64,000 nucleotides of DNA from Patescibacteria group bacterium (GTDB lineage: Bacteria; Patescibacteriota; Minisyncoccia; Moranbacterales; UBA2206): the NCBI GenBank assembly GCA_022711335.1, contig JAKLFF010000001.1, positions 40,260 through 104,259 on the forward strand. Direction: 5' to 3'. The notes below the pieces were generated by a model. It was not told the DNA's origin, did no database searches, and saw only the letters and a program-made list of their open reading frames with translations. Made by a program: the position numbers and the translations under genes. How positions within the stretch are numbered: the stretch's first letter is position 1; each line of letters begins with the position of its first letter. Below are positions 1 through 57,071 of the stretch, one piece after another.

Positions 1-755
1 AACCAGGCATTTGGTCGGCTTGCGTATCTTCGCAAATTGGCTGTCCGATGGGTTGCCAATTTTGCGCAACAGGCAAAGGCGGATTTGTGAGAAATTTAAC
101 TTCCGAAGAAATAATCGATCAGATTTTGTTTTGGAAGCAGCATCTCAAGAAAAATAAAATCAGCGGCATTTTTTCCAATATCGTTTTTATGGGAATGGGA
201 GAGCCATTTCTCAATTGGAAAGAGGTATCCAAAAGCATAAAAGATTTGACTGATCCGAAATTATTCGGTTTTGGATCAAGAAGCATATCTGTCTCAACGG
301 TTGGCATTCGGGAAGGAATTGAAAAAATAGCCAAGGAATTTCCCCAGGTGAATCTGGCCATTTCTTTGCATTTCGGAAATAACAAAAAAAGATCAGAATA
401 TATGCCAATTAACAAAGACTATGATTTAAATAACATTAAAAATTCCATTTCCTGTTATTTTCAAAAAACCAGGAGGAAGATTTTTTTGGAATATATCATG
501 CTTGCGGATATTAATGACAGTCAGAAAGACGCGGATGACTTGATTAAGTTTATAAGGTCCATAGATGATAATTATCTTTTGCATCTGAATCTTATTAAAT
601 ATAACGAAACTTCCGGAAAATTTGTTCCTTCAACCGGAACGAAAATGAATGAATTTAAAAATTATCTTGTTTCTAGAGAAATAAGCGTCACAATAAGAAA
701 AAGCCTTGGAGAAGATATCCAAGGCGCATGCGGGCAGCTGGCTGGCAAAAATTAA
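1..755 (+). CDS. rlmN: Radical-SAM rRNA/tRNA adenine-C2 methyltransferase RlmN, 5-prime truncated at window edge
   Basis: The frame stays open back to position 1. It reads PGIWSACVSSQIGCPMGCQFCATG, which is the RlmN CxxxCxxC cluster motif. The C-terminus ...DIQGACGQLAG matches the RlmN terminal motif. Confidence 0.8.
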   Translation, partial: PGIWSACVSSQIGCPMGCQFCATGKGGFVRNLTSEEIIDQILFWKQHLKKNKISGIFSNIVFMGMGEPFLNWKEVSKSIKDLTDPKLFGFGSRSISVSTVGIREGIEKIAKEFPQVNLAISLHFGNNKKRSEYMPINKDYDLNNIKNSISCYFQKTRRKIFLEYIMLADINDSQKDADDLIKFIRSIDDNYLLHLNLIKYNETSGKFVPSTGTKMNEFKNYLVSREISVTIRKSLGEDIQGACGQLAGKN

Positions 756-2422
756 ATATTTTTTACCATATAAGTATCTTCCAGTCTATATTCCAGCTTT
801 TTATAGTATCCCCGGACTCCAACACCTGAAATAACGGCGATTTTTTTTATTCCGAAATCTTGTTTGGCAATTCTTTCAGCTTCGGCAATAAGTTTCTTTC
901 CAAGTCCGATATGCTGGGGAGATTTATTGTCCTTTCTGCTTATCTCGGTCATTTTTCCATAAGTATGCACCTCGCGGATGATAGCGGAATTCCTTAATAT
1001 TGGCATATAATCATACAATTTGTCATTCCCGACTTGACCGGGAATCCAGTTTTTAATTTTTATTTGTTTGGCTAGATTCCCGCTTTCGCGAGAATGACAA
1101 ATAAAGGGAACTCTTAATCGCAACAATGCGAATAATTTTTTCTTGTCTTTTGACACGAATTGCAAAAATATTTCTTTTCCGCCTGATGCGTTATAATCAA
1201 TCCGATCGAGAATTATTTTTTCATTTATTTTATAATCCAGCTTTACTTCCCGGCATCGGATGCATTGGCAGTTTGATCTGGGAATAATCAGCTGGCGCAG
1301 ATTGGATAATTTCGGTCCAGCAATAATTGAAGTGGAGGGAACATCGCGGACCAGGCGGGAAATCCGGACGTAGGGCGGAATGATTTTGTTTTTTATTTCC
1401 AAAACCAGTTTTTCAAACTGCTTATCGCTCATCGGATTGTATTTTCCTTGTTTCCAAGCTTTGTATAAATCGCTGTTTTTCACAACAACAGTCGGATAAA
1501 TTTTGAGCATATCCGGACGAAAATCGGGATTGGAAAATAATTTTTGAAACATTTCCAAATCTCTCTTGGAATTTGATCCGGGAAGTCCGGGCATAATGTG
1601 ATAATTTATTTTGAATCCGGCGTCTTTAAGAAGTTTAGAGGCTTCTATAGTGGCTTCTACATTATGTCCGCGGCTATTAATTTTTAAAATATCATCAAAA
1701 ATATTTTGCACGCCCAGTTCAACTCTCGTGCAGCCCAAATTTCTAAAATTAATTATTTCTTTTTCCGAAATATAATCCGGCCGCGTTTCCAGTGTCAGCC
1801 CAATAATCCTATGCCTAGCCTTTTCATTTTTTCTTTGCTCGATTAGCAATAAATTTTTTGTTACATGTTTCGTGTTATATGTTTTATGTTTTGTGTATTC
1901 ATTGCAGGCGCGGAAACATTCAGTGATGAACCAGCGCTGATATTTTTTGGGAAGATAGGAAAAAGTTCCGCCCATGACGATCAATTCGATTTTGTCAGTT
2001 TTGTGCCCGTTAAGTTCGAGTGATCGAAGCCGGTTTTGCACTTGGGCGTATGGATTAAATTTTGAGAAAATGGCGCGCATAACGGCCGGTTCATTGGAAA
2101 GATAGCTTTTGGGCATTTTGGGTTCAGTCGGGCAATAAAGGCATTTTCCAGGGCAAGGAAATGGCTTTGTAAGGACGGCGACAACGGCTACCCCAGACTG
2201 AGTGCGGATGCTTCGGCTCATCATAACCTTTTCGAGATTGGCGCTTGGTTTGATTTCTTTTTTTTCTATCAGTTTGTTATAAATTTCCCGTAGATCTGCA
2301 TTAGTCGGCAGGGGAAGTCTCAACTTTTTGCAGAGGTCTTTTTTGATTTGCGAAAAATCTTCGGAATTTTTAACATTCCTTTTTATTGCTAATTTTATGA
2401 AGTTGTCATAAGCTGGATTCAT
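752..2422 (-). CDS. elp3: Elp3-like protein: N-terminal radical-SAM domain plus C-terminal GNAT acetyltransferase domain. Carries an in-frame repeat-element insertion.
   Basis: The radical-SAM motif is PFPCPGKCLYCP (CxxxxCxxC). The GNAT tail HIGLGKKLIAEAERIAKQDFGIKKIAVISGVGVRGYYKKLEY is typical of Elp3. The 556 aa ORF reads through repeat copy 1 at 1021..1099. Confidence 0.85.
   Translation of the reverse strand: MNPAYDNFIKLAIKRNVKNSEDFSQIKKDLCKKLRLPLPTNADLREIYNKLIEKKEIKPSANLEKVMMSRSIRTQSGVAVVAVLTKPFPCPGKCLYCPTEPKMPKSYLSNEPAVMRAIFSKFNPYAQVQNRLRSLELNGHKTDKIELIVMGGTFSYLPKKYQRWFITECFRACNEYTKHKTYNTKHVTKNLLLIEQRKNEKARHRIIGLTLETRPDYISEKEIINFRNLGCTRVELGVQNIFDDILKINSRGHNVEATIEASKLLKDAGFKINYHIMPGLPGSNSKRDLEMFQKLFSNPDFRPDMLKIYPTVVVKNSDLYKAWKQGKYNPMSDKQFEKLVLEIKNKIIPPYVRISRLVRDVPSTSIIAGPKLSNLRQLIIPRSNCQCIRCREVKLDYKINEKIILDRIDYNASGGKEIFLQFVSKDKKKLFALLRLRVPFICHSRESGNLAKQIKIKNWIPGQVGNDKLYDYMPILRNSAIIREVHTYGKMTEISRKDNKSPQHIGLGKKLIAEAERIAKQDFGIKKIAVISGVGVRGYYKKLEYRLEDTYMVKNI
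1021..1099. mobile_element. MITE-like double-hairpin element, copy 1, in-frame inside elp3
   Basis: The sequence is tgtcattcccgacttgaccgggaatccag, then a 28 bp AT spacer, then ctagattcccgctttcgcgagaatgaca. The ends are inverted repeats, and each arm contains its own mini-palindrome. Confidence 0.9.
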
Positions 2423-2434
2423 ATGGATTTATTT

Positions 2435-2512
2435 TGTCATTCCGGGCTTGACCCGGAATCTAGTCGATAAATTAGTTAATTTAACTGGATTCCCGCTTTC
2501 GCGGGAATGACA
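2435..2512. mobile_element. MITE-like double-hairpin element, copy 2, intergenic between elp3 start and the methyltransferase gene
   Basis: The sequence is tgtcattccgggcttgacccggaatctag, a spacer, then ctggattcccgctttcgcgggaatgaca. It has the same TIRs as copy 1. Confidence 0.9.
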
Positions 2513-2528
2513 ATAGAATTAGAGTTAT

Positions 2529-3187: not shown

Positions 3188-3270
3188 TGCCGAAGGAGAG
3201 AGTCGAACTCTCATGGGATTTCTCCCGCACGATTTTGAGTCGTGTGCGTCTGCCATTCCGCCACTTCGGC
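3188..3270 (-). tRNA. tRNA-Leu (anticodon CAA), type II with long variable arm
   Basis: The reverse complement is GCCGAAGTGGCGGAATGGCAGACGCACACGACTCAAAATCGTGCGGGAGAAATCCCATGAGAGTTCGACTCTCTCCTTCGGCA. It has a 7-bp acceptor stem and an anticodon stem CACGA/TCGTG with loop CTCAAAA. The T-loop is TTCGA and the long variable arm is CGGGAGAAATCCC. CCA is not encoded. Confidence 0.85.
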
Positions 3271-3442: not shown

Positions 3443-4234
3443 ATGGCAAAAATAATATCTCTCGTCAACCAAAAAGGGGGAGTGGGAAAAACTACCTCGG
3501 CTATTAATTTAGCCACCTATCTCGCGGCGGCAGGAAGATTTGTGCTGCTTGTCGACCTTGATCCGCAGGGAAACGCTTCATCGGGATTGGGCATAAATCT
3601 TTCTAAATTGGAAAAAAATCTCTATCATTCTATGATAATTGGAGAGCATCCGTCCAAAATAATTCTTCGCACGGAAACTCTCGGCCATGACATAATTCCG
3701 GCTTCCCAGGATTTGGCCGGGGCGGGAATCGAACTTGTCCACATGGATAATCGCGAGTTTCGGCTGTATAATGTACTTAGAGAAATCAGGACCAATTACG
3801 ATTATATCATAATTGATTCACCGCCAAGCCTCGGACTTCTCACGATAAACGGACTGGTTGCCAGCGACGAGGTGATCATTCCGGTTCAAACTGAATATTT
3901 TGCTCTTGAAGGGCTTAGCCAGCTTTTAAATACTATCGATCTGGTCAAAGAAAATTTGCAGCCGGATCTGAAAATTATGGGCGCGCTTCTTACGATGTAT
4001 GACAAGAGAAATCGCCTGGCGCGGCAGGTGATAAAAGAAGTAAGGGATCATTTTCCGGGATTTGTTTTTGACTCTGTTGTTCCGAGATCGGTGCGCCTGG
4101 CGGAGGCACCAGGATTTGGAAAGTCAATTTTGGGATTTGACCAGTTTTCCAAAGGCGCTCGGGCGTACAAAAATCTAGCGAGAGAAATAATTGGGATGGA
4201 AAAGAAAAGCAGCAATAAAAGTTTTACAGTATAA
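3443..4234 (+). CDS. parA: Chromosome partitioning ATPase ParA/Soj
   Basis: MAKIISLVNQKGGVGKTT is the deviant Walker A motif. The start was moved to the ATG at 3443; the listed ORF starts at 3404. Confidence 0.9.
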   Translation: MAKIISLVNQKGGVGKTTSAINLATYLAAAGRFVLLVDLDPQGNASSGLGINLSKLEKNLYHSMIIGEHPSKIILRTETLGHDIIPASQDLAGAGIELVHMDNREFRLYNVLREIRTNYDYIIIDSPPSLGLLTINGLVASDEVIIPVQTEYFALEGLSQLLNTIDLVKENLQPDLKIMGALLTMYDKRNRLARQVIKEVRDHFPGFVFDSVVPRSVRLAEAPGFGKSILGFDQFSKGARAYKNLAREIIGMEKKSSNKSFTV

Positions 4235-4261
4235 AAAAATAAAAAATCCGAAGCACGAAAT

Positions 4262-4384
4262 CAGAAATTCGAAACAAATTCAAAATATTAAATTTGAAAT
4301 GGCTAAAACTGTTTTGAATTTTAAACATTTGAATTTGTATATTGTTTCGAATTTCGATATTCGAATTTCGAGTTTGATTAATTT
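4262..4384. repeat. AT-rich heptameric GAATTTN/TTCGAAA repeat array in the parA-parB spacer
   Basis: attcgaaacaaattcaaaatattaaatttgaaat...gtttcgaatttcgatattcgaatttcgag. The same motif family recurs at 6977..7105 and 21968..22105. Confidence 0.6.
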
Positions 4385-5398
4385 ATGGCTCAGAATTATG
4401 GATTAGGCCGGGGTCTTGCCTCGCTTATTCCCCAAAAACGCAAATCCGTCCCTTTTGGCGGATCGCAGCCGGGCGATGAAGCAGAAAAAAAAGTAGTCGA
4501 ACCAAAAGAAGATTTCAATTATTTCGGCGCTTCTGCGGCTCCTGGGAGCGTTGCTGCAGCCATTAAGGCCAATCCTGTTTCAACCGCGTCTCCTAAAAAT
4601 AGCGGCGCAGAGAAAGATAATGGCGCAGGAAATGAAATTCGGGAAGTGGAAATGATAAAAATAGTTCCCAATCCCCACCAGCCAAGGCTGAGTTTTAATG
4701 ATGAAAAACTCGAAGAACTTGCTGGCTCCATCAAAGAGCATGGGATTATCCAGCCGATAACTGTTACAAAAAATAATGGCAATTTTGAAATTGTAACCGG
4801 AGAACGGCGTTTTCAGGCGGCAAAAATGGCTGGTCTTAAGACTGTTCCGGTGATAGTTCGGGATGCGAACGAAAAACAAAAACTGGAGTTGGCTATCACT
4901 GAAAATGTTCAGCGCCATGATCTTGACGCAATTGAAGAAGCCAAAGCCTATAAAAAGCTGATAGAAGAATTTGAAATGAATCAGGAGGAAGTAGCTAAAA
5001 AAATCGGCATAAGCCGCAGTGCGGTAGCCAACAAGATCAGGCTTCTTGGCCTCCCGGTGGAAATTCAAAAAGCACTGATTGCCGGCGATATAACGGAAGG
5101 ACACTGCAAACTGCTTTTGGCAATATCTAATCCGGAAAGACAGAAGGCTTTTTATGAAATGATTTTGAAAAACAAGCTGACCGTCAAGCAAACTGAAACA
5201 AAAACCAAAGAATTTTCAGTCAAGACCCACAAAAGAACATTGCATATTGATCCGGAAATAAAACAAATAGAAGACGAGCTTTCCCAAAAACTGGGTACTA
5301 AGGTAAAACTGACTAAATCAGGCGGGGGAGGAAGAATCATAGTAGAATATTATTCGCAGGAGGAATTGAATAATATTTTGGATAAAATTGCAAAATAA
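4385..5398 (+). CDS. parB: Chromosome partitioning protein ParB/Spo0J
   Basis: The GLGRGLASL N-terminus and the ParB box VTGERRFQAAKMAGLKTVPVIVRD are present, as is the HTH stretch KKIGISRSAVANKIRLLGLP. There is an expanded GC-rich N-terminal linker. Confidence 0.9.
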   Translation: MAQNYGLGRGLASLIPQKRKSVPFGGSQPGDEAEKKVVEPKEDFNYFGASAAPGSVAAAIKANPVSTASPKNSGAEKDNGAGNEIREVEMIKIVPNPHQPRLSFNDEKLEELAGSIKEHGIIQPITVTKNNGNFEIVTGERRFQAAKMAGLKTVPVIVRDANEKQKLELAITENVQRHDLDAIEEAKAYKKLIEEFEMNQEEVAKKIGISRSAVANKIRLLGLPVEIQKALIAGDITEGHCKLLLAISNPERQKAFYEMILKNKLTVKQTETKTKEFSVKTHKRTLHIDPEIKQIEDELSQKLGTKVKLTKSGGGGRIIVEYYSQEELNNILDKIAK

Positions 5399-6966: not shown

Positions 6967-6976
6967 GAGTTTATTA

Positions 6977-7105
6977 TGAATTTAGAATTTAGAATTTCGA
7001 ATTTTGAATTGGAATCTGGAATATTGAATTTCGAGGTAATCTCGGCTGTTTTTTATTTTAAATTCTTAATTCCCATTCTAAATTCCAACTTCACAATTCA
7101 AAATT
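6977..7105. repeat. Inverted arrays of heptameric GAATTTN repeats flanking a ~60 bp core, intergenic between topA 3-prime end and rel 5-prime end
   Basis: The left arm is gaatttagaatttagaatttcgaattttgaattggaat. The right arm is ttctaaattccaacttcacaattcaaaattc, the reverse orientation. Confidence 0.6.
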
Positions 7106-9373
7106 CTATTTTATGTAGCTACATTCCTTGTTCGAACACCTGGCTTTTCCTTTAGCGGCAAACGTCATAAGGCTTTTGCACTTCGGGCATTTTTCTCCGG
7201 TCGGCTTATTCCAGAGGGCGAAATCGCAGTTTGGATAAGCATTACATCCGTAAAAAATTCTTCCCTTTTTGCTTTTTCGCTCGACTATTTCGCCTTTTTC
7301 ACATTTTGGACAGGTAATCCCGGTTTTATTTTCTATCTTCTTTATATTCTTACAATTGGGATAATTGGAACATCCCAGAAAGGCTCCAAACCGGCCTCGT
7401 TTTACGGCCATTTTAGCTCCGCAAAGTTCGCAAATTTCTCCGGCATGCTGTTCGTCTAATTTTTTTTCAGAATCTGTTTTTTCAGTATAGCGGCAGTTGG
7501 GATAATTTGAACAAGCGATGAATTTTCCAAAGCGGCCGAATTTCAAAACCAGGTCTCCGCCGCATTCAGGACAATTGCGGTCAAGTTTTTCCTGAAAAGA
7601 TTCCTTTTTGACTTCTTTGGTTTTGTTTTTCAGATGCTTGATGAAGGGATCATAAAAACTTTGGATGACTGGAACCCATTTTATTTTTCCTTCAGCTATT
7701 TCATCAAAATCTTCTTCTACCGTAGCGGTAAAGTTGATGTCGACAATTTCCGGGAAATGTTCGACGAGAAGATCATTGACGACGAGGCCGATTTCAAGGG
7801 GATAAAGCCTTTTCTCTTCGTTTTTTTCGATATATTTTCGGTCGAGTATAGTTGAAATAGTCGGAGCGTATGTAGATGGGCGGCCAATCCCATTTTCTTC
7901 AAGAACTTTGACCAAAGTCGCCTCAGAGTATCGGGGCGGCGGAACAGTTGTTTTTTCTTCAACATTTATGTCGGCTGTTTCCAGTTCGTCTCCGGTTTTG
8001 AGCGGAGGAAGGATATTTTCCCCGTTGGCTTTCCGGAAGGAGTTGACTTTCAAAAACCCGTCAAACTTTATGGTAGATCCGCTGGCGGAAAGAAGATAAT
8101 TATTTTTCGATTTTTTATTCTGGGCTGAAATAGAAACTTTGACCGAATCAAAAACCGCGGGTGCCATTTGCGAAGCAATCATTCTTTCCCAAATAAGCCT
8201 GTATAGCTTGTACTGTTCGTGTTCCAGATCCTTTTTTAGCTCATCCGGATGCTTATCGGGATAAGCTGGACGGATAGCCTCGTGCGCTTCCTGGGCGTTT
8301 TTTGATTTATTTTTAAAAAATCTGGGGTTTTCAAGCGCATACTCTTTTCCAAATTCTTTTTCTATCGTTTTTTTGGCAGAGAGAATGGATTCGAGCGAAA
8401 GATTGACGCTGTCGGTTCTCATATAGGTTATGAATCCCTGCTCATAAAGCTTCTGGGCGGTCATCATGGTTTTTTTAGCGGAGTAACCCAGATTATTTAT
8501 GGCGCTTTGCTGCAGAGTGGAAGTGGTGAAAGGAGGGCTGGGATGACGGAGTGTTTCTTTTTCGGAGATATCGATAATTTCAATTTTGGATTTCTCCAGG
8601 TCAGTGGCGGATTCTTTAGCGCTTTTCTCGTCAGAGAAAATAGTTCTTTTAGTTTTATAGTCTCCGGCGAAAAGCTTGATAGTTTTCGCTACTTCCGTCT
8701 TTTTTCCGTTCTTTTCTATGATTTCCGCTTTAAATTTTTCAAGATCGGATGCGCCGTTTTTTTTGAGTTCAACAGAAACGTTCCAATATTTTTCACTTTT
8801 GAATTTTTCAATTTCCCGCTCCCGTTCGCAAATGAAACGGAGGGCAACAGATTGCACTCGTCCGGCACTGAGACCGCGGCGGATTTTTTTCCAGAGAAAC
8901 GGAGAAAGCTTATATCCGACTAGCCGATCAAGAATCCTTCTGGCCTGCTGGGCGTCAACCAGGTCAATGTCAATCTTGCGCGGATTTTCAAGCGCCTTAG
9001 TTATGGCATTTTTGGTAATTTCATGGAAAACTATCCGTTCAAAATTCTTTTTTTTGGAAAGCCCTAAAGCTTCAACGAGGTGCCAGGAGATAGCTTCTCC
9101 TTCGCGGTCTTCATCGGTTGCAAGAATCACTTTTTCGGCTGAAGATGCCTGTTTTTTAAGCTCTTTTACTCGGTTTATAGCTTTCGGAGGAATTTCATAT
9201 TTCGGCTCAAAGTTGTTTTCAACATCAATCGCCAATTCTTTTTCCGGCAAATCACGAATGTGTCCGTAGGAAGATTTTACGGAAAAACCTTTTCCAAGAA
9301 ATTTGGAAATAGTTTTGGCTTTAGTTGGAGACTCAACAATGACTAACTTCATGAAGCATGGAACATATAGCAT
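7106..9373 (-). CDS. topA: DNA topoisomerase I with C-terminal zinc-ribbon repeats
   Basis: The Toprim start is MKLVIVESPTKAKTISKFLG, so the true start is probably the second Met near 9352. The active-site region YITYMRTDS is present. There are multiple C-terminal CxxC...CxxC zinc fingers. Confidence 0.9.
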   Translation of the reverse strand: MLYVPCFMKLVIVESPTKAKTISKFLGKGFSVKSSYGHIRDLPEKELAIDVENNFEPKYEIPPKAINRVKELKKQASSAEKVILATDEDREGEAISWHLVEALGLSKKKNFERIVFHEITKNAITKALENPRKIDIDLVDAQQARRILDRLVGYKLSPFLWKKIRRGLSAGRVQSVALRFICEREREIEKFKSEKYWNVSVELKKNGASDLEKFKAEIIEKNGKKTEVAKTIKLFAGDYKTKRTIFSDEKSAKESATDLEKSKIEIIDISEKETLRHPSPPFTTSTLQQSAINNLGYSAKKTMMTAQKLYEQGFITYMRTDSVNLSLESILSAKKTIEKEFGKEYALENPRFFKNKSKNAQEAHEAIRPAYPDKHPDELKKDLEHEQYKLYRLIWERMIASQMAPAVFDSVKVSISAQNKKSKNNYLLSASGSTIKFDGFLKVNSFRKANGENILPPLKTGDELETADINVEEKTTVPPPRYSEATLVKVLEENGIGRPSTYAPTISTILDRKYIEKNEEKRLYPLEIGLVVNDLLVEHFPEIVDINFTATVEEDFDEIAEGKIKWVPVIQSFYDPFIKHLKNKTKEVKKESFQEKLDRNCPECGGDLVLKFGRFGKFIACSNYPNCRYTEKTDSEKKLDEQHAGEICELCGAKMAVKRGRFGAFLGCSNYPNCKNIKKIENKTGITCPKCEKGEIVERKSKKGRIFYGCNAYPNCDFALWNKPTGEKCPKCKSLMTFAAKGKARCSNKECSYIK

Positions 9374-18760: not shown

Positions 18761-19987
18761 ATGCCAAAAGTTATAACTGACGAAAAATTAATAGATGAAC
18801 TTTTAAGCCGGAGTGTTGCTGAAATTTTACCGTCAAAAAAAGACCTTAAGGATCTATTGACGTCGGGGAAAAGAATACGAATTTATATTGGCACCGATCC
18901 TACCGGAACATCACTTCACATCGGGCATGCAACTAATTATATAATTCTTGAAAAATTCAGAAAACTTGGTCATGAAGTTATTTTCTTAATCGGTGATTTT
19001 ACTGCTCGCATCGGAGATCCTTCGGACAAAAATTCAGTTCGTAAACAATTAACAAGGAAAGATGTAAAGAAAAATGTTGAAACCTGGCTGAAACAGATAG
19101 AGCCTATAATAAGCATTAAAGATAAAAACAACCCCGTAATAATTAAATATAATCATGACTGGCTGTCCAAACTGACATTTGAGGACGTTGTTAATCTAGC
19201 TTCTAATTTTACGGTCCAGCAGATGCTGGAGAGGGACATGTTTGAGAAGAGAATGAAAGATGGCAAGCCGATATTTCTGCATGAATTTTTTTATCCGTTA
19301 ATGCAGGGATATGACAGCGTGGCTATGGATGTTGATATTGAAATGTGTGGGAATGACCAAAAATTCAACGCTTTGGCAGGAAGAACTCTCTTAAGGAAGC
19401 TTAAGAACAAGGAAAAATTCGTTTTTATTACAACCCTTCTTGAAAATCCTGTAACGGGAGAAAAGATGATGTCTAAAAGCTTAGGAACAGGCGTGTTTTT
19501 GGATGGGGACAGCAATAATATGTTTGGGAAAATTATGGCTCAGCCCGATGAAAATTTGCCACAGCTATTCGCTGATTGCACCTATATATCAATGAACGAA
19601 GTCAATAAAATTAAAAATTCGCTAAAGGATTCTGAAGTTAATCCTAGAGATGTTAAATTGCGGTTAGCTTTTGAAATCGTAAAAATTTACCACGGTGAAA
19701 AAAAAGCCCAGGAAGCCAAAGAATATTTTGAAAAAGTTTTTTCACGGAAAGAAACTCCGGATGAAATCCAGGAAATAAAAATCAAAGAAGGAGAAAACAT
19801 TGTTGATTTTATAGTCAGAGCAGGAATGGCGGAGAGCAAAAGCGACGCGCGGAGGAAAATTGAGCAGGGCGGAGTGAAAATTGGCGGCGAAACAGTGAAA
19901 GATTCCAGTCTTGTTATTGGTAGTAGCTTTGACGGGAAGATTTTGAAGGTTGGAAAAAGAGAGTTTCGAAAAATCACCCTTGCATAA
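18761..19987 (+). CDS. tyrS: Tyrosyl-tRNA synthetase with C-terminal S4 domain
   Basis: The HIGH motif is GTDPTGTSLHIGHA and the KMSKS-like motif is KMMSKSLG. The S4-like C-terminus is IVDFIVRAGMAESKSDARRKIEQGGVKIGG. Confidence 0.85.
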   Translation: MPKVITDEKLIDELLSRSVAEILPSKKDLKDLLTSGKRIRIYIGTDPTGTSLHIGHATNYIILEKFRKLGHEVIFLIGDFTARIGDPSDKNSVRKQLTRKDVKKNVETWLKQIEPIISIKDKNNPVIIKYNHDWLSKLTFEDVVNLASNFTVQQMLERDMFEKRMKDGKPIFLHEFFYPLMQGYDSVAMDVDIEMCGNDQKFNALAGRTLLRKLKNKEKFVFITTLLENPVTGEKMMSKSLGTGVFLDGDSNNMFGKIMAQPDENLPQLFADCTYISMNEVNKIKNSLKDSEVNPRDVKLRLAFEIVKIYHGEKKAQEAKEYFEKVFSRKETPDEIQEIKIKEGENIVDFIVRAGMAESKSDARRKIEQGGVKIGGETVKDSSLVIGSSFDGKILKVGKREFRKITLA

Positions 19988-20700: not shown

Positions 20701-21969
20701 ATGGGAATTTTTTCAAAAATTTTAGGTTTCGGAAACATTTCACAGGATTTTTTGCTTTCTTTGGATATAGGGACGGAAGTGGTAAAAGCACTAGTTTTTA
20801 AAATCAATAAAGAAAGCGGATTAGGGATAGTAAAAGGAGTTGGAAGATCAAGGCAAGGGCTTAAAGATATGCATAGCGGAGCTGTTTCTGATATAAAGGG
20901 AGTTATTGATAATTCAAAAAAAGCGATTGAAATGGCCAAAAACATGGCCGGAGCCAGAAAGATAGAAAAAGCTGTCATTGGAATTGCCGGAGAGCTGGTA
21001 AAAGGAACAACTACTACTGTTCATTATGAAAGAATTCGCCCGGAAATTCGAATTGATCTTCCGGAACTCAAAAACATTATTCAAAAAGTCCAATGGAAAG
21101 CCTTTGACCGCATCAGGCAGCAGCTGGCCTGGGAAACGGGACACAGCGAAATTGAAGTGAAGCTGATAAACGCGGCGATTGTGGATGTTCGGATCGATGG
21201 ATACAAGGTGACCAACCCAATCGGTTTTCAGGGACGCGACGTATCTATCGCTGTTTTTAATGCATATGCCCCGATGATTCATTTAGGGGCGCTTCAGGCT
21301 ATTGCGGATGAATTGAAACTGGAGCTGCTAAATGTTGCGGCTGAACCTTACGCTGTGGCCAAATCTATGGGACTTGACGATATAACTGACTTTAATGCGA
21401 TTTTTATTGATATAGGAGGAGGAACGACCGACATCGCGGTAGTGAGAAACGGCGGACTGGAAGGAACAAAAATGTTTGCTTTAGGAGGCAGGGCTTTTAC
21501 AAAAAGACTAGCGCATGAACTGGGCGTGGGATTTGAAGAAGCGGAGGTTTTGAAAATAAGGTATTCTGAAGGAAAATTAGGGCGGGACGTCAGTATGAAA
21601 GTAGAAAGGATATTGGAAGACGATTGCAATGTTTGGCTTTCCGGCATTGAACTTTCTCTTTCTGAGTTTGCTTCAAGCGATCTTCTTCCTCATAGATTTT
21701 TCCTTTGCGGCGGAGGTTCTGGCCTTCCGGGAATAAAAAAGGCGCTTGTATCTTCTGGATGGACGGGAAATCTTCCCTTTGCCAGAATTCCGGAAGTTAG
21801 TTTTTTGCAGCCTAAAGACGTGGTTAATATAAAAGATGAAACAGGCGAGCTTCGCGATCCGCAAGATATAACGCCAATGGGATTGGCCAATCTGGCCTTA
21901 GATCTGGTTGGCGAAGAAAAAGTTATGGCCGGAATCTTAAGAAGAGCGGTAAAAATGATACAAAAATAG
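20701..21969 (+). CDS. Actin-fold ATPase of the FtsA/PilM family (FtsA-like)
   Basis: Phosphate-1 is LSLDIGTEVVKALVF. Phosphate-2/adenosine is IFIDIGGGTTDIAVV...FALGGRAF. The length of 422 aa fits FtsA, but no ftsZ lies downstream. Confidence 0.6.
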   Translation: MGIFSKILGFGNISQDFLLSLDIGTEVVKALVFKINKESGLGIVKGVGRSRQGLKDMHSGAVSDIKGVIDNSKKAIEMAKNMAGARKIEKAVIGIAGELVKGTTTTVHYERIRPEIRIDLPELKNIIQKVQWKAFDRIRQQLAWETGHSEIEVKLINAAIVDVRIDGYKVTNPIGFQGRDVSIAVFNAYAPMIHLGALQAIADELKLELLNVAAEPYAVAKSMGLDDITDFNAIFIDIGGGTTDIAVVRNGGLEGTKMFALGGRAFTKRLAHELGVGFEEAEVLKIRYSEGKLGRDVSMKVERILEDDCNVWLSGIELSLSEFASSDLLPHRFFLCGGGSGLPGIKKALVSSGWTGNLPFARIPEVSFLQPKDVVNIKDETGELRDPQDITPMGLANLALDLVGEEKVMAGILRRAVKMIQK

Positions 21970-22105
21970 AATTTTGAATTTGGAATTTTGAATTTGGAAT
22001 TAAAATGCAAAAAATAAAAAATACATAAATTATCATAGTGCCAATTTATTTTTTGGGCTTATATTTATTCTAAATTCTAAATACTAAATTCTAAATTTCA
22101 ATTTT
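21968..22105. repeat. Inverted arrays of heptameric GAATTT(N)/GGAATTT repeats in the intergenic region
   Basis: The left arm is gaattttgaatttggaattttgaatttggaatt. The right arm is ttctaaattctaaatactaaattctaaatttc. The architecture matches 6977..7105. Confidence 0.6.
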
Positions 22106-24115
22106 ATGCACCAGACATTCTATATCGATATAGATGAAGAAATCACTTCTATAGTCGAAAAATTGAGAAATTCAAAATCAGGAGAAGTTGTGCTCGTTGT
22201 TCCCAAGAGAGCGTTGCTTATCCAGAGCATCGTCAATCTTCGGCTTCTCAAAAAAGAAGCCGACTCGCTGAATGTTTCCTTGAGTATTGTTACTCAAGAC
22301 AATTTGGGGAAGGTTTTAGTTGAAAAAGCAGGCATATTTTACCAAGAAAGCCTGAAGGAAACAGAAAATGATGAGATAATAAGAAGTGAAAGCAGAATTG
22401 GCGAAAGCTATTTTGACAATCGCGACTATTCGAAAATAGGGGACAATCTTCATTCAGAGGAAGAAAAAATGGGAAAAATAGGTTCCGACAGTTATTTTGA
22501 CAGGAGCAGCAATCTTTCTTCTGAAATGGACAAGGATAAAAAAGCTGTTTTTAGAAACGTTTCTCCGGAACAGCCTTCCTCTTCCAGCCAGCCAAGTAGT
22601 GAGAAAATTTTAAATAAAGAATTGGTTTTGGGATTTGGAAATAATGCCAATTTAAAAAAAGGAGCTGTCAGCATAGACTCCTCGCTGTCTTCTTATCAAA
22701 TGCATCCAAGTCAAGCAGGTTTGCCGCAAGCGCCTGTGCAGGCGGCCAGAAATAATCCCCCGTCTGTTTCTAGGCCTTCCGAATTATTTCCTCGACCAAT
22801 AGAAGGCGTACGGGGAAATGCTTATGCTGGCCGGTCGGGAGACAGAAAAATAGATAATTTTTTCCAACATGGAAATTATTCTGTTCCGGCAGAAGAAAGC
22901 AAAAACGGTTTCAAGAACGCCAGCCTTTCTAAGAAAACATTTAAAGTTTTTTGGATTTTCGGGCTGATTCTTATTTTGCTTGTTTTGGCAGCGGCTGCTT
23001 ATTTCATAGTGCCCAAAGCAGATGTTGTCATTACTGCGAAGGGGACTCAAAAGGCTCAGGAAGCAGAAGTGAAAGCTGACGCTAAAATTGAAACAGTGAA
23101 TTATGAGGAAAAAGTTATTCCAGCAGAGGCAGTTTCAACTGTTGTAACGGCTTCGAAAAGCGTAATTCCCAGTGGAAACAAAGGGGCATCGAGTGGAAAA
23201 AAGGCCAGAGGGACGATCACTATATATAATGAGTTTAGTTCAGCCAGCCAGTCTCTTGTAGCGACGACGCGCTTTCAATCGGAAGATGGAAAAATATTCA
23301 GGCTGGAAAAGGGGGTTACTGTTCCTGGAACGTCAAAAGAAGGCGGGGAAACTAAAGCCGGAACAATCGAAGTGGAAGTAGCGGCAGATGAATCCGGAGA
23401 ATCCTATAATATCAGCCCTTCAAAATTTACTATTCCTGGATTTAAAGATAGCGGAAACGGAAAATACGAAAAGATTTACGCCAAATCAGAAAAAGCGATG
23501 TCTGGCGGAGGAAGCGAAAATAGCTCTTCGGAGGGAGGAAATAAAAAAATAACGGAAGCGGATATAGCCGGAGCAAAAAGCAAAATTTTATCGGATCTTC
23601 AAACCCAGGTAAGGAATAAAATCGAAGAATCGGCTGGAGAGGGAATGGTCGTTTTGGATGATGCCATCAATAGCGAGGAAGCGGTTTATACTCTTTCAAA
23701 TTCAGCTGGAGAAGCAGTCGAAAAATTCGAAATCAAAGCGCAAATGAAAGTAAACGCGCTGGTTTTCAAAAAATCTGACTTGGAAAATGTCGTAGGAAAA
23801 ATTGCCGCTAATTCAGGAAACGGAAAAACTAGCCTGGAAGGAAGTTCAATGGATATTTCTTATGGCAAGGCAGATGTTGATTTTAAGGCCGAAACTGTTC
23901 TAATTAAAGCAATCGGAACGATTAAAAACGGCTCAGACATTGATTTGGAAAATATCAAGAAGGAAATTTTAGGAAAAACAAATGAAGAATTGGAAACATA
24001 TTTGGGTGCTTATCCGAACATAGAAAAAGTGGATGTAACCTATTGGCCGCCGTTTCTAAATGGAAAAATTCCCCTTTATGAGAAACGGGTCAATGTGGCG
24101 GTAGAAGTCGAATAA
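22106..24115 (+). CDS. Hypothetical bitopic membrane protein (cytoplasmic N-domain, Ser/Pro-rich linker, single TM, large extracytoplasmic domain)
   Basis: 669 aa with the TM segment FWIFGLILILLVLAAAAYFIV near residue 290. I recognise no family motif. Confidence 0.55.
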   Translation: MHQTFYIDIDEEITSIVEKLRNSKSGEVVLVVPKRALLIQSIVNLRLLKKEADSLNVSLSIVTQDNLGKVLVEKAGIFYQESLKETENDEIIRSESRIGESYFDNRDYSKIGDNLHSEEEKMGKIGSDSYFDRSSNLSSEMDKDKKAVFRNVSPEQPSSSSQPSSEKILNKELVLGFGNNANLKKGAVSIDSSLSSYQMHPSQAGLPQAPVQAARNNPPSVSRPSELFPRPIEGVRGNAYAGRSGDRKIDNFFQHGNYSVPAEESKNGFKNASLSKKTFKVFWIFGLILILLVLAAAAYFIVPKADVVITAKGTQKAQEAEVKADAKIETVNYEEKVIPAEAVSTVVTASKSVIPSGNKGASSGKKARGTITIYNEFSSASQSLVATTRFQSEDGKIFRLEKGVTVPGTSKEGGETKAGTIEVEVAADESGESYNISPSKFTIPGFKDSGNGKYEKIYAKSEKAMSGGGSENSSSEGGNKKITEADIAGAKSKILSDLQTQVRNKIEESAGEGMVVLDDAINSEEAVYTLSNSAGEAVEKFEIKAQMKVNALVFKKSDLENVVGKIAANSGNGKTSLEGSSMDISYGKADVDFKAETVLIKAIGTIKNGSDIDLENIKKEILGKTNEELETYLGAYPNIEKVDVTYWPPFLNGKIPLYEKRVNVAVEVE

Positions 24116-41782: not shown

Positions 41783-42655
41783 ATGACTAAAATTAAAAAA
41801 GCTATTCTTCCAGTTGCGGGTTTTGGAACCCGGTTCTTGCCGGCGACTAAAGCCCAGCCGAAAGAAATGCTTCCGGTCGTTGACAAGCCAGCTATTCAAT
41901 ATTTGGTCGAAGAAGCAGCGGCAGCTGGAATTGAAGAAATTGTTTTTGTAACCGGTCGCGGAAAAAGAGCTATTGAAGATCATTTTGACTATTCATACGA
42001 GCTTGATCATACGCTAGTTGAAAAAAATAAGCACGATTTGGTCAAAAAAGTGAGGGAAGTTGAAGATTTGGCAAAATTTTCATATGTTCGACAACCCGTT
42101 CCTCTGGGAGACGGCCATGCTGTTCTTTGCGCTCGGCATATTGTTGGAGATGAGCCTGTGCTTGTGATGTTCGGCGATAGTTTATATGACAGCGAAGTTC
42201 CCGCTGCAAAACAACTTATTGATGTATATGAAAAATATAATGATGTCGTGGTTGGTTTGTCCGAAGTAAAACCAGACGAGGTTGAAAGATTTGGCGTTAT
42301 AGACGGAATTGATATCGGAAATGGAATCTATGAGATTAAAAAATTTGTCGAGAAGCCCAAAAAAGAAGAAGCGCCAAGCAATTTAGTGGCGGTTGGAAAA
42401 TATATAATAACTCCCGAAATTTTTGAGCTGTTGTCGACAATGAAAGGCGGAAAATCGGGAGAAATAAGGCTGGCTGACGCTTTTGATCTGATGTTGCAGA
42501 AAAACAGGCCGATTTACGGAAAAAAACTGGATGGCGAATGGCTGGATACGGGCGAAAAGCTTACTTTTATCACAACAACCATAAAGCTTGGTATAAAGCA
42601 TCCTGAAATAGGAGAAAAACTAAAAAGATTTATTAAAGAACTTGATATAAAATGA
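41783..42655 (+). CDS. galU: UTP--glucose-1-phosphate uridylyltransferase
   Basis: KAILPVAGFGTRFLPATKAQPKEMLPVVDKPAIQYLVEEA. Confidence 0.85.
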   Translation: MTKIKKAILPVAGFGTRFLPATKAQPKEMLPVVDKPAIQYLVEEAAAAGIEEIVFVTGRGKRAIEDHFDYSYELDHTLVEKNKHDLVKKVREVEDLAKFSYVRQPVPLGDGHAVLCARHIVGDEPVLVMFGDSLYDSEVPAAKQLIDVYEKYNDVVVGLSEVKPDEVERFGVIDGIDIGNGIYEIKKFVEKPKKEEAPSNLVAVGKYIITPEIFELLSTMKGGKSGEIRLADAFDLMLQKNRPIYGKKLDGEWLDTGEKLTFITTTIKLGIKHPEIGEKLKRFIKELDIK

Positions 42656-43923
42656 AAATTGCCATTCAAGCGGCGGATTTGGACAGCCAGCGGATTGATG
42701 GAACGCGGGTTTATATTTTGAATGTTCTAAAATACTTTGGAAAGCTCGATGAATCCAGTGATTTTTTGGTTTATCATAAAAAGAATTTCAATTCGGAACT
42801 CGAGCCGCCGGAATTTCCAAACTACAAAATAATTCAAAAAAATTCAGCTTGTATCTGGACGCAGACCAGATTTGCCTGGGAAATTTGGAAAGACAAGCCG
42901 GATGTCCTCTGGATGCCGATGCAGGCGCTTCCAATTATACGAAGGAAAAATCTTAAAACCGTGATAACTGTCCACGATCTGGCTTTCAAAATTTTTCCGA
43001 ATCAATTTACAAGAAATGATTTAAGGCGACTAAATTTTTATGCCGATTACGCTATAAAAAATTCTTCAAAAATAATCGCTGTTTCGGAGTCGACAAAAAA
43101 AGATATTTTAAAGTTTTATCCTGAAATAAAAGAAGATAAAATCAAAGTTATTTATCATGGGTTCGATGAAGGAGTTTTTGGTAAAAGATATGATAATAGT
43201 GAGATACTGGATATTTTGGAGAAATATAATATTATCAATAAAGTTCAAAGTTCAAAGTTCAAAGTTCAAAGCTACAGTTCAAAACTAAAAGTTACTTTTA
43301 AATACCTGCTATATGTCGGAGCTTTACAGCCAAGGAAAAATTTGATTTTATTGGTTAAGGCATTCGAAAGACTAAAAGAAAAATATTGTCATTCCGGCCA
43401 ACGAGCCGGAATCCAGTCTGGAAACAAAGATAATGCACTAGATTCCCGCTTTCGCGGGAATGACAAAAACGCCGGTGATTTTAGCAATTTGAAATTAGTT
43501 TTGGTTGGGAAACCAGCCTGGATGGCGGAAGAAATTTTAGAAAGAATAAAAAAATCAGAATTTGCAAACGATATAATTTTAGCCGGCCAAGTTGGCTTTG
43601 GTGATCTTGGTAAAATTTATCAAGGCGCCAGCGCTTTTGTGTTTCCCTCGCTTTATGAAGGCTTCGGGATTCCGATTTTGGAAGCTTTTGCGTCGGGAGT
43701 GTCGGTGATTTGCGCCAACAATTCTTCTCTTCCGGAAGTAGCCGGAGAAGCGGCGCTTTATTTCAAAAATAATAATCCTCAAGATTTAGCCATACAAATT
43801 GAAAAAATATTATTAAGCGAAGAATTTAAAAAAGACCTTGTTTCAAAAGGCCTCTTGCAGCTTCGAAAATTTTCTTGGGAAAAATGCGCCCGGGAAACTT
43901 TAAGTTATCTCAAATCAGGCTAA
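42652..43923 (+). CDS. Family-4 (GT-B) glycosyltransferase carrying a 7-bp tandem repeat and an in-frame MITE-like insertion in the interdomain region
   Basis: The C-terminal GT4 core is LLYVGALQPRKNL...FVFPSLYEGFGIPILEAFASGVSVICAN. Confidence 0.75.
   Translation: MKIAIQAADLDSQRIDGTRVYILNVLKYFGKLDESSDFLVYHKKNFNSELEPPEFPNYKIIQKNSACIWTQTRFAWEIWKDKPDVLWMPMQALPIIRRKNLKTVITVHDLAFKIFPNQFTRNDLRRLNFYADYAIKNSSKIIAVSESTKKDILKFYPEIKEDKIKVIYHGFDEGVFGKRYDNSEILDILEKYNIINKVQSSKFKVQSYSSKLKVTFKYLLYVGALQPRKNLILLVKAFERLKEKYCHSGQRAGIQSGNKDNALDSRFRGNDKNAGDFSNLKLVLVGKPAWMAEEILERIKKSEFANDIILAGQVGFGDLGKIYQGASAFVFPSLYEGFGIPILEAFASGVSVICANNSSLPEVAGEAALYFKNNNPQDLAIQIEKILLSEEFKKDLVSKGLLQLRKFSWEKCARETLSYLKSG
43241..43271 (+). 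repeat. Heptanucleotide tandem repeat (AAGTTCA)x4.4 inside the GT4 coding sequence
   Basis: aagttca aagttca aagttca aagttca aag. It translates as KVQSSKFKVQS. Confidence 0.85.
43387..43465. mobile_element. MITE-like double-hairpin element, copy 3, in-frame inside the GT4 gene
   Basis: tgtcattccggccaacgagccggaatccag, a spacer, then ctagattcccgctttcgcgggaatgaca. The encoded peptide is CHSGQRAGIQSGNKDNALDSRFRGNDK. Confidence 0.9.
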
Positions 43924-55472: not shown

Positions 55473-57071
55473 ATGAATTTTTCTAATAATATGCCCGCCA
55501 AAGGCGAGTCCGCCTTTGGCGGAAAAATCTCTATATCATATCCGCCGTTAGAATCAAAAAAAGGCATTGCTTGCCTGGCGCAAAACCGCCAGTTCCAGTG
55601 GTTCAGCCATCCGACTTACATCTATCCGGTTATTCCGGCTTATGCAGCCTCGTTTCTCAAGGCCAATGGATATGATGTTTTGTGGGATGATGCGATCGCG
55701 GAAGAATTGAATTATGAACAGTGGAAAGAAAGAATAGTCCGGGAAAAACCGGATATTATTGCGATTGAAACAAAGACACCGGTAGTGAAAATGCATTGGA
55801 AAATTATTGATGAAATAAAAAGAGAATTGCCTGATTCCAAGGTGGTATTGATGGGAGATCATGTGACGGCGCTGCCCAAAGAATCTTTGGAAAATTCCAA
55901 AGTTGATTATGTGATCGCCAGCGGGGATTATGATTTTGCGCTTTTAAATCTAGCCAATCATCTGTCAAAAGGCGAAGCGCTGGAGGGGGGCTTTTGGTAT
56001 CGGAAAAATTGTCATTCTCGCGAAAGCGGGAATCTAGAGGCAGGCAGTAAAGACTGGATCTCCGCTTTCGCGGGGATGACAGAAAAAGAATATAAAGAAT
56101 CAGAAATAACCACCACTGGGCCGGCAGATATTTCAAAAAATAATTTAGATACTCTGCCGCTTATCGACAGAAAGCTCACGAAGTGGAAAATGTATGGATA
56201 TAAAAATGGAAATTTCAAATATACGCCTGGCGCTTACATGATGAGCGGGCGCGATTGCTGGTGGGGAAAATGCACTTTCTGTTCCTGGACAACTATGTTT
56301 CCGGGAGAGAAATTTCGAACGATGTCGGCTGAAAAAGCGCTCAGCGAAGTGGAAAATCTGATTAAACTGGGTGTTAGAGAAATTATGGAAGATAGCGGTT
56401 CGCTTCCGGTTGGGCAGTGGCTCAAAGATTTTTGCCGTGGAATGATAGAACGGGGATATAACAAAAAAATAACGATGAGCTGCAATATGAGGATTACCGG
56501 CATAAAAGATCTTGAAACATGGGAGCTTATGAAAAAAGCCGGCTTCCGGTTTATTCTTTTCGGACTGGAATCAGCCAATCAGGAAACGCTTGACCGAGTT
56601 TGCAAAAATCTCGAGGTTTCAGAAATTGAACCAGGTCTCAAACTGTGTAAAGAAGGCGGGCTCGAACCTCATATCACTGCTATGATCGGCTACCCGTGGG
56701 AAACAAAGGAAATGGCTCAAAAAACGATAAGCTTGGCGAAAAAATTGTTCAAATGCGGATATGTAGACACGCTTCAGGGAACAATCGTGATTCCTTATCC
56801 GGGAACGCCTTTATATAAATACTGCGCTGAAAACAATTTGCTTCTAACCAAAAATTACGAAGATTATGATCAGCGCCAGATGGTTATGAAATCGCCACTG
56901 GCTTCCGAAGATGCCAAAGGACTGGTGCAGGGACTGTATAAGTCTTTTATGAGCCCCCAGTTTATCTGGCGAAAAATAAAATCCATAAGAAATATGGATG
57001 ATATAAAATTCTTTTTTATGGCTGGCTGGAAATGGATGGGGAAGATGATGGATTTTGGAAACAAAAAATAG
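55473..57071 (+). CDS. B12-binding-domain radical-SAM protein with in-frame MITE-like insertion
   Basis: It has an N-terminal B12-binding-like domain. The radical-SAM cluster motif is RDCWWGKCTFCSW. The ORF reads through repeat copy 4. Confidence 0.8.
   Translation: MNFSNNMPAKGESAFGGKISISYPPLESKKGIACLAQNRQFQWFSHPTYIYPVIPAYAASFLKANGYDVLWDDAIAEELNYEQWKERIVREKPDIIAIETKTPVVKMHWKIIDEIKRELPDSKVVLMGDHVTALPKESLENSKVDYVIASGDYDFALLNLANHLSKGEALEGGFWYRKNCHSRESGNLEAGSKDWISAFAGMTEKEYKESEITTTGPADISKNNLDTLPLIDRKLTKWKMYGYKNGNFKYTPGAYMMSGRDCWWGKCTFCSWTTMFPGEKFRTMSAEKALSEVENLIKLGVREIMEDSGSLPVGQWLKDFCRGMIERGYNKKITMSCNMRITGIKDLETWELMKKAGFRFILFGLESANQETLDRVCKNLEVSEIEPGLKLCKEGGLEPHITAMIGYPWETKEMAQKTISLAKKLFKCGYVDTLQGTIVIPYPGTPLYKYCAENNLLLTKNYEDYDQRQMVMKSPLASEDAKGLVQGLYKSFMSPQFIWRKIKSIRNMDDIKFFFMAGWKWMGKMMDFGNKK
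56010..56081. mobile_element. MITE-like double-hairpin element, copy 4, in-frame inside the radical-SAM gene
   Basis: tgtcattctcgcgaaagcgggaatctag, a spacer, then ctggatctccgctttcgcggggatgaca. The encoded peptide is CHSRESGNLEAGSKDWISAFAGMT. Confidence 0.9.

Follow-up and report, generated by a model that had tools for sequence, protein, structure and literature searches.

The DNA analysed here, a 64,000-nucleotide stretch of a Patescibacteria genome (the window; positions 40,260 to 104,259 of contig JAKLFF010000001.1, GenBank assembly GCA_022711335.1), contains four short double-hairpin elements of 72-79 bp, located at positions 1021-1099 (copy 1), 2435-2512 (copy 2), 43387-43465 (copy 3) and 56010-56081 (copy 4). 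We conclude, with a probability of about 0.8, that these four elements and a fifth copy on the same contig are TGTC-tagged repetitive extragenic palindromic (REP) sequences arranged as 'HH' dimers, and that they are gene-less, non-autonomous derivatives of a unit in which the same arms enclose a gene for a small GIY-YIG nuclease of the Ssn type. Such arm-ssn-arm units of ~350 bp have the same ends and the same geometry as the window elements. The dimers are therefore read as a gene-less, MITE-like (miniature inverted-repeat transposable element) form of the unit, although not of the DDE or TA-targeting kind. The first-pass annotation of the window, made from the sequence alone, had called the elements MITE-like. 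This description holds in the sense that the elements share their ends with a unit whose gene they lack, and fails for a classical transposon with terminal inverted repeats and target-site duplications.

Structure of the hairpin dimers

All four copies were re-found exactly where the first-pass annotation had placed them. Each reads 5'-TGTC, 8-bp stem, loop, stem, CYAG, a spacer, then CTRG, stem, loop, stem, GACA-3', and in all four the two hairpins are inverted with their TGTC tags outside. As single-stranded DNA (ssDNA), a single arm forms an 8-bp stem with a loop of 4-5 nt and leaves the tag and the tail unpaired. All eight arms start with TGTC, and the tail is CCA in four of them and CTA in the other four. 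The stems (ATTCCCGC, ATTCCGGG, ATTCCGGC, ATTCTCGC and ATCCCCGC) have AT at their first two positions. Five arms combine the stem ATTCCCGC or a 1-nt variant of it with a GAAA loop; three have CCGG-type stems with the loop CTTGA (two arms) or the atypical 6-nt loop CAACGA (one arm). Copies 1-3 are heterodimers. Copy 4 is a homodimer and folds as one long hairpin. The spacers of the four copies are mutually unrelated and measure 16-22 bp, a narrower range than the 12-28 bp given earlier. The 10-bp terminal inverted repeat reported at the same time is correct as far as the ends are inverted, but it consists only of the tag and half-stem of each hairpin.

The elements stand out clearly from the background. 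With up to 3 mismatches allowed, the right-arm consensus has 5 matches in the window and none in 100 shuffled sequences, and a relaxed search for arm hairpins returned exactly eight arms, which make up the four dimers. The predicted RNA folds have energies of -28 to -43 kcal/mol (z -5.1 to -7.9 versus shuffled controls) and the ssDNA folds have z scores of -4.3 to -7.7, bearing out the double stem-loop proposed in the first reading. A scan of the whole window against Rfam at gathering thresholds returned tRNA only and no match to the elements; the sole match is a tRNA gene at 3188-3270 on the minus strand.

A fifth TGTC dimer is present on the same contig ~8 kb upstream of the window start (L126, ~19583-19682), with the LeuRS gene on one side and the DUF4349 gene on the other. 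The left arm of this dimer is degenerate, with a nested hairpin (CCTGCCggtgaGGCAGG) in its loop. The four heterodimers (copies 1, 2, 3 and 5) share one orientation, with the CTTGA-type arm first on the plus strand, while the strands of their host genes differ. GC skew is positive over the whole window. The shared orientation could reflect strand-specific insertion at the replication fork, which with n=4 is only suggestive.

Relation to known repeat families

CGTC-tagged REPs, whose tag is often TGTC, have been surveyed before (Di Nocera, De Gregorio and Rocco, 2013, BMC Genomics 14:522; PMC3733652). Their stems are 8-9 bp long and start with AT, their loops have 4 nt (CGTC-1) or 5 nt (CGTC-2 to -4), and they carry a CCA tail. 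They mostly form HH dimers with the tags outside, either homo- or heterodimers, whose partners are usually 20-100 bp apart, and intragenic dimers code for 20-30 residues (Di Nocera et al., 2013). The window elements agree with CGTC-1/-2 REPs in tag, stem, loop, tail and HH arrangement: they have the TGTC variant of the tag, 8-bp stems beginning with AT, 4- and 5-nt loops, a CCA tail, heterodimers and coding dimers inside genes. They depart from that description in one arm with a 6-nt loop and in their spacers of 16-22 bp, at the short end of the reported range. By sequence and geometry, the elements are members of this known CGTC/TGTC-tagged family in the form of HH dimers, and the proposal that they constitute an undescribed family has to be given up. 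The 2013 survey covered five phyla, none of them Patescibacteria, and found no enzyme, whereas the host here belongs to Patescibacteria and its relatives carry an ssn partner.

The arms also match a motif with a known protein partner. A full-text literature search with the arm DNA sequence led to a study of the Neisseria Transformation Sequence (NTS; CGTCATTCCCGCGMAVGCGGGAATCYRG), a sequence that includes the classical dRS3 repeat (Chenal et al., 2025, Nat Commun 16:2388; PMC11893778). In that study, SsnA, a GIY-YIG protein of 94 residues, binds the NTS hairpin when the DNA is single-stranded and cleaves only one strand, immediately upstream of the hairpin and 5' of its tag; Ssn homologs across bacteria are flanked by 'Ssn-related motifs' (SRM). 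The arms with a GAAA loop match the NTS consensus at 27 of 28 positions, and those at 2485-2512 and 43438-43465 deviate at base 1 only. The published SRM regular expression (regex) matches six of the eight arms and misses the two with a CCGG stem in copies 2 and 3. All eight retain the GTC that precedes the palindrome and the C that follows it, bases critical for Ssn cleavage and binding (Chenal et al., 2025). Near-identical arms and critical bases are thus shared with Neisseria dRS3/NTS, and the NTS-ssn-NTS architecture is present in Patescibacteria. Their placement differs. In N. meningitidis most NTS copies lie between genes (2% are intragenic), and they cluster near genes for surface proteins (Chenal et al., 2025), whereas three of the four copies here are in frame within housekeeping or biosynthetic genes. 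Moreover, unlike in Neisseria, no ssn gene was seen in the window or ~20 kb of flank, and Patescibacteria go unmentioned in that study.

Other palindromic repeats provide further comparisons. CGTC-1 has been equated with Neisseria dRS3 and Rickettsia RPE-6, and CGTC-4 with RPE-4 (Di Nocera et al., 2013). Like RPE-6 and RPE-4, the window elements are short palindromic repeats that sit inside functional genes without breaking the frame and are translated into additional loops; three such inserts, absent from orthologs or homologs, are found here. A locus from a Rickettsia endosymbiont (L093) has the same dimer in frame, with the peptide MSFPQKRESS..LDSRFRGND. Unlike the RPE hosts, which are obligate intracellular Alphaproteobacteria, the host here belongs to the candidate phyla radiation (CPR), and the equivalence of RPE-6 and CGTC-1 rests on the statement in the 2013 survey. 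There is also a resemblance to REP/BIME sequences and their RAYT enzymes, which likewise involve tagged hairpins, inverted dimers, a small enzyme gene between its own hairpins and action on ssDNA. The tag in that system is GTAG and the enzyme an HUH/Y1 transposase of the IS200/IS605-like type, whereas here the tag is TGTC and the partner, in relatives, a GIY-YIG protein. The RAYT system may serve as a working analogy for propagation. The Neisseria NIMEs are intergenic arrays in which inverted dRS3 repeats bound short repeat units and the internal RS units are family-specific. The window elements are like NIMEs in having a short segment between inverted dRS3-type hairpins, and unlike them in having unique spacers.

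Table 1. Arms and spacers of the four hairpin dimers, with their host genes or intergenic region (positions in the window)
Feature	Position	Strand	Size	Description
Elp3-type radical SAM/GNAT tRNA-modification enzyme	752..2422	-	556 aa	Copy 1 = aa 442-468 (CHSRESGNLAKQIKIKNWIPGQVGNDK)
Copy 1, arm A	1021..1049	+		Stem ATTCCCG(A)/(C)CGGGAAT, CTTGA-type loop, CCAG tail; SRM regex match
Copy 1, spacer	1050..1071		22 bp	A/T-rich, unlike other window spacers
Copy 1, arm B	1072..1099	-		TGTCATTCTCGCGAAAGCGGGAATCTAG; GAAA tetraloop, CGTC-1 type; SRM regex match; 1 mismatch to arm consensus
Intergenic region	2423..2528		106 bp	Divergent genes, Elp3 leftward and methyltransferase rightward; holds copy 2
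Copy 2, arm A	2435..2463	+		TGTCATTCCGGGCTTGACCCGGAATCTAG; 8-bp stem, CTTGA loop, CGTC-2-like; ssDNA fold -8.5 kcal/mol, z -4.9
Copy 2, spacer	2464..2484		21 bp	
Copy 2, arm B	2485..2512	-		TGTCATTCCCGCGAAAGCGGGAATCCAG; 27/28 NTS consensus positions; ssDNA fold -9.0 kcal/mol, z -5.8
GT4-family glycosyltransferase	42652..43923	+	423 aa	Copy 3 = aa 246-272 (CHSGQRAGIQSGNKDNALDSRFRGNDK)
Copy 3, arm A	43387..43416	+		TGTCATTCCGGCCAACGAGCCGGAATCCAG; stem ATTCCGGC, 6-nt loop
Copy 3, spacer	43417..43437		21 bp	
Copy 3, arm B	43438..43465	-		TGTCATTCCCGCGAAAGCGGGAATCTAG; SRM regex match
B12-binding radical SAM enzyme	55473..57071	+	532 aa	Copy 4 = aa 180-203 (CHSRESGNLEAGSKDWISAFAGMT)
Copy 4, arm A	56010..56037	+		TGTCATTCTCGCGAAAGCGGGAATCTAG; SRM regex match
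Copy 4, spacer	56038..56053		16 bp	
Copy 4, arm B	56054..56081	-		TGTCATCCCCGCGAAAGCGGAGATCCAG; ATCC stem variant; SRM regex match

A GIY-YIG gene between the same arms

The candidate autonomous form was found in relatives. In a Patescibacteria metagenome-assembled genome (MAG; L043), a 98-residue GIY-YIG protein (PF01541, 3e-16) is encoded 70 bp from a dimer. It has more than 7,000 close homologs of ~95 residues, which are 65-77% identical across Patescibacteria, Kiritimatiellae, Omnitrophota and Latescibacterota. The DNA context was read for four of the homologs, from four Patescibacteria lineages (P0177, P0191, P0193 and P0138). In the first three, a gene of 282-291 bp lies within 3-15 bp of arms on both sides, with the tags pointing outward. 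The borders read TGTCATTCCCGCG..GGAATCCAG on the left and CTGGATTCC..GGGAATGACA on the right, and their geometry is that of the window elements. In P0138 the 3' arm begins 3 bp past the stop codon and the 5' arm lies ~45 bp upstream. The four genes occur in four unrelated genomic contexts. The 93-residue protein P0191 has Tyr6, Tyr17 and Glu64; mutating these residues inactivated SsnA of N. meningitidis (Chenal et al., 2025). Ssn-like proteins have no specific model in NCBIfam, which gave only sub-threshold matches to group I intron endonucleases, and only distant UPF0213 GIY-YIG relatives in the PDB.

Two further arrangements were seen. Beside the ssn gene of L043, two inverted dimers (3679-3771 and 5180-5271) with a common 22-bp outer flank (aaaaaataataaaccgttcaat) bracket ~1.4 kb and may form a larger composite unit. 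Among the loci L138-L141, one Patescibacteria arm-ssn-arm unit is located within a type IV secretion (T4SS)-like cluster (TraC-like, PrgI, T4SS pilin), which may be a conjugative element able to carry the unit between hosts.

Insertion sites and age of the copies

One copy is intergenic and three lie inside open reading frames (ORFs), as first noted. These ORFs are real genes, with Pfam domains on both sides of each insert, and the inserts are in frame (Table 1). The empty sites that the first-pass annotation had suggested looking for exist in relatives for copies 2, 3 and 4. Since the element is absent there, the elements are inserted DNA.

At the site of copy 2, the start codons of the methyltransferase and Elp3 genes in L142, L144 and L145, and in L143 after start correction, stand back to back (CAT directly followed by ATG) or overlap. 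The additional block in the window comprises the element and flanks of 15 and 11 bp, with the hexamer CCATAT on both sides, 13 and 7 bp off the arms. Because just 12 and 16 nt separate copy 2 from the two start codons, both leaders must cross the hairpin element or start within it.

The insert of copy 3 is absent in the closest glycosyltransferase homologs (P0002-P0010, up to 84% identity over aligned columns), and the distant orthologs P0012 and P0050 have similar dimers a few residues away from its position. In the AlphaFold (AF2) model of the glycosyltransferase, residues 248-273 form a coil with pLDDT below 50 between a helix (230-245) and a strand (281-285). The insert is thus modelled at a tolerated position, a low-confidence coil between secondary-structure elements. 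The insert of copy 4, absent in 10 of 10 aligned homologs, falls in the linker that joins the B12-binding domain (56-152) to the radical SAM domain (260-421). The three coding copies persist, in our reading, because they keep the frame (24 or 27 codons), are free of stop codons in the frame that is read and are located in loops or linkers. The host genome is gene-dense.

Copy 1 has a different history. The region 1021-1099 was compared with the Elp3 orthologs L142-L145 and P0243-P0329. Many CPR orthologs have a TGTC-tagged dimer at the same point, between LRLR(V/I)P.. and KLY.., and others have lost the whole loop. The alignment to an Elp3 structure in the PDB breaks here, at query residues 443-479 versus chain residues 397-405. 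The dimers in this loop sometimes belong to other stem families; in L144 the stems are ATCCTGAA and ATGCTGAA and the peptide is CHPEFISG..MLKQVQHD. The presence of varied stem families in one loop suggests that a fixed site was re-invaded or converted, or else that the insertion is ancient and its arms have turned over.

Copy 1 is an old copy. Compared with the Elp3 ortholog of L142 (72% amino acid identity), its arms agree at 53 of 57 nt (93%) and its spacer at 10 of 22 nt (45%), while the nucleotide identity is 72.4% over the whole gene and 52% at third codon positions. The differences between the arms include a compensatory change of a stem pair from C-G to T-A. It follows from the contrast between arms and spacer that selection or gene conversion acts at the DNA level to maintain the arms, while the spacer is left to drift.

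Several minor features of these genes were noted. Other repeat-like loop peptides occur in CPR orthologs of the glycosyltransferase (P0003, P0025, P0026 and P0050) and of Elp3 (P0329), namely SAQGGPASGWQTT, NPPAGEAGNQ, SLPSLILPSGRGGGL and MSFPPLDKGRARVGSS, and hint at more families of coding repeats. A (GTTCAAA)n run at 43243-43280 in the glycosyltransferase gene encodes KVQSSKFKVQS, a segment that most homologs lack and that has pLDDT below 50. The possibility that the spacer of copy 3 is captured host sequence was considered because of a AAATAAAAATAA-like match to an insert-free homolog, and was rejected as unprovable in low-complexity A-rich DNA.

Distribution across genomes and viruses

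The whole-dimer pattern was found on at least 120 contigs among GTDB species-representative genomes. At least about 29 of the loci are in Patescibacteria (Moraniibacteriota, Paceibacterota, Saccharibacteria, Magasanikiibacteriota, Sungiibacteriota, Portnoybacteria, Nomurabacteria and Vogelbacteria). The same dimer also occurs in Alpha-, Beta-, Gamma- and Deltaproteobacteria, in Nitrospirae, Nitrospinota, Planctomycetota, Verrucomicrobiota, Dehalococcoidia, Omnitrophota, Ignavibacteriae and Armatimonadota, and in the Rickettsia endosymbiont. This spread over many phyla contradicts the idea of a family specific to CPR genomes. The search pattern did not constrain the inner stem of the left arms; of their 53 unique variants, 38 show perfect pairing at the 3 free positions, against 1.6% expected by chance, and at least 12 stem variants occur. 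That the pairing of the inner stem is kept across variants shows that what is conserved is the hairpin itself. Of 131 dimers, eighteen fall within long ORFs, where they encode SFPRKRES, VIPAKAGIQ or CHSRESGN, followed by LDSRFRGND or WIPxxAGMT.

Multi-copy dimer families with spacers conserved in both orientations are present in 'Ca. Hatepunaea', a Competibacteraceae MAG and a Dehalococcoidia MAG. Conservation of the spacer in both orientations shows that the dimer propagates as a unit in those genomes. We also considered whether dimers generally lie inside longer palindromes. This is the case only for the 'Ca. Hatepunaea' families; overall, flank complementarity was 3.69 of 12 compared with 3.45 in the control.

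Single arms were found on more than 120 viral contigs in IMG/VR, two of which have them adjoining Ssn-like ORFs. The composite dimer pattern had no matches in the viral contigs. On two viral contigs (L162, 11721-12039, and L164, 358-682), next to a 495-aa gene, tags-outward arms surround an ORF of 78-105 codons that does not encode a GIY-YIG protein, indicating that the arms can flank other cargo.

Propagation and alternative explanations

How the dimers might spread can be outlined from their architecture. Each strand of a tags-outward dimer would carry one forward site at its own 5' border. An Ssn protein could then nick both outer borders, one per strand, when the DNA is single-stranded, and repair or recombination with another copy as the template would let the dimers spread and keep their arms homogeneous. 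The window's copies would presumably depend on a cognate Ssn encoded in this genome.

A number of observations weigh against this explanation. Neither a search for GIY-YIG motifs nor a map of the genes revealed an ssn candidate in the 64-kb window, ~20 kb of readable flank has no GIY-YIG ORF either, and an ssn gene occurs within ~4 kb in only one of 120 dimer loci. The ratio of tags-outward to tags-inward dimers in the genome scan, 131:1, is biased because the search pattern demanded the tags-outward geometry. The spacers in the window are unrelated, nothing there points to amplification in recent times, and the copies might be relics. Covalent intermediates are not formed by GIY-YIG enzymes, no transposition chemistry is known for Ssn, and to our knowledge its transposition or homing has never been demonstrated. 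The published work shows only Ssn cleavage and its effect on transformation (Chenal et al., 2025).

A broader proposal, which we put forward tentatively and hold to be somewhat less probable than its negation, is that arm-ssn-arm units and gene-less dimers constitute one pan-bacterial family of tiny mobile elements driven by a GIY-YIG ssDNA nuclease that also homogenises old copies, including those within coding sequence. Cutting at its own hairpins followed by copy-templated repair would explain why arm identity stays at ~93% even as spacer and synonymous sites decay. The proposal would also explain the different stem families in the same Elp3 loop across CPR lineages, the near-identical arms, and the 65-77% identical Ssn proteins across phyla and on viral contigs.

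The dimers could alternatively be host-domesticated Ssn sites that serve to cut incoming ssDNA and tune recombination in natural transformation, with the arms kept by selection on the host. In Neisseria, NTS and SsnA reduce the integration of NTS-bearing DNA ~5-fold (Chenal et al., 2025). The arms of the old orthologous copy in Elp3 are conserved far above background, and the genome encodes DprA (L126, 1913-3010), which makes ssDNA uptake plausible. On the other hand, three of the four copies interrupt coding sequence, which looks more like tolerated insertion and differs from the 2% of NTS copies found in N. meningitidis genes; the five copies in ~84 kb do not cluster around particular genes, and the lack of an ssn gene in the window and its flank counts here as well. 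A host role overlaps with descent from the arm-ssn-arm unit and differs from it in who benefits. We consider it unlikely as the main explanation, although it is a live alternative or complement.

A function at the RNA level, as terminators, mRNA stabilisers or translation modulators, would fit the strong predicted RNA folds (z down to -7.9), the leader position of copy 2 between two divergent genes and the argument that REPs are in many cases transcribed and located 3' of genes (Di Nocera et al., 2013). However, the same position places copy 2 between divergent starts and not at a 3' end, and Rfam has no match to the elements. Three copies are inside ORFs, where a terminator would be harmful and an RNA role is unlikely. 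In addition, the ssDNA tag and tail bases required by Ssn are invariant, and an RNA hairpin would have no need of them. Taken over all copies, we regard this explanation as highly improbable.

Nor is there a good case for a classical MITE, that is, a deletion derivative of an insertion sequence with a DDE transposase that has a 10-bp terminal inverted repeat and inserts at, and duplicates, TA. The elements are short and have inverted ends. The base before them is T in all four copies and the base after them A in three; the T...A flanks on which the first-pass annotation had based TA-targeting thus hold for copies 1-3, while copy 4 has T...G. Among 129 dimers the preference is weak, for T before the element (57%) and A (50%) or G after it. 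Target-site duplications of 1-6 bp are at chance level in this set (2 bp in 6 of 129, 3 bp in 3 of 129). The supposed terminal repeat is made up of the tag and half the stem of a hairpin with a covarying inner stem, the unit with the same ends carries a GIY-YIG nuclease gene and not a transposase gene, and the window contains no transposase. TA-targeting insertion is therefore abandoned, and a classical MITE seems scarcely tenable.

An assembly or sequencing artefact, such as an adapter or chimeric junction, has nothing in its favour but GC-rich composition within an AT-rich genome and can be set aside: the window is 100% identical to contigs of independent JGI and ENA assemblies over their overlap, copy 4 included, the exact 556-aa Elp3 protein with its insert is found on at least 23 contigs, six of them from six different samples, and orthologous inserts are present in diverged lineages.

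Implications for annotation and mobility

The window repeats, once called a new family, are now tied to a motif with a known enzyme partner. The idea that NTS-ssn-NTS is a mobile element has been published but is unproven. Our analysis extends the family to a Moranbacteria-like CPR genome, pairs autonomous with gene-less forms in Patescibacteria and reveals long-term maintenance of the arms in a coding loop. The shared ends of units and dimers, the empty sites at three of four loci and the conservation of the arms with a compensatory change provide testable support for NTS-ssn-NTS mobility. If this mobility is true, few known autonomous mobile units would be as small as the Ssn elements.

There is also a practical consequence. 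Odd peptides in CPR and metagenome proteins, such as CHSRESGN, VIPAKAGIQ, SFPRKRES, LDSRFRGND and WIPAFAGMT, are translated hairpin repeats, and recognising them is useful for annotation and for trimming alignments.

A second repeat family is present in the window. Its A/T-rich units, of the AATTCTAAA / TTCGAATTT type, occupy intergenic regions at 4244-4368, 6973-7112 and 21963-22107 and are partly inverted relative to each other.

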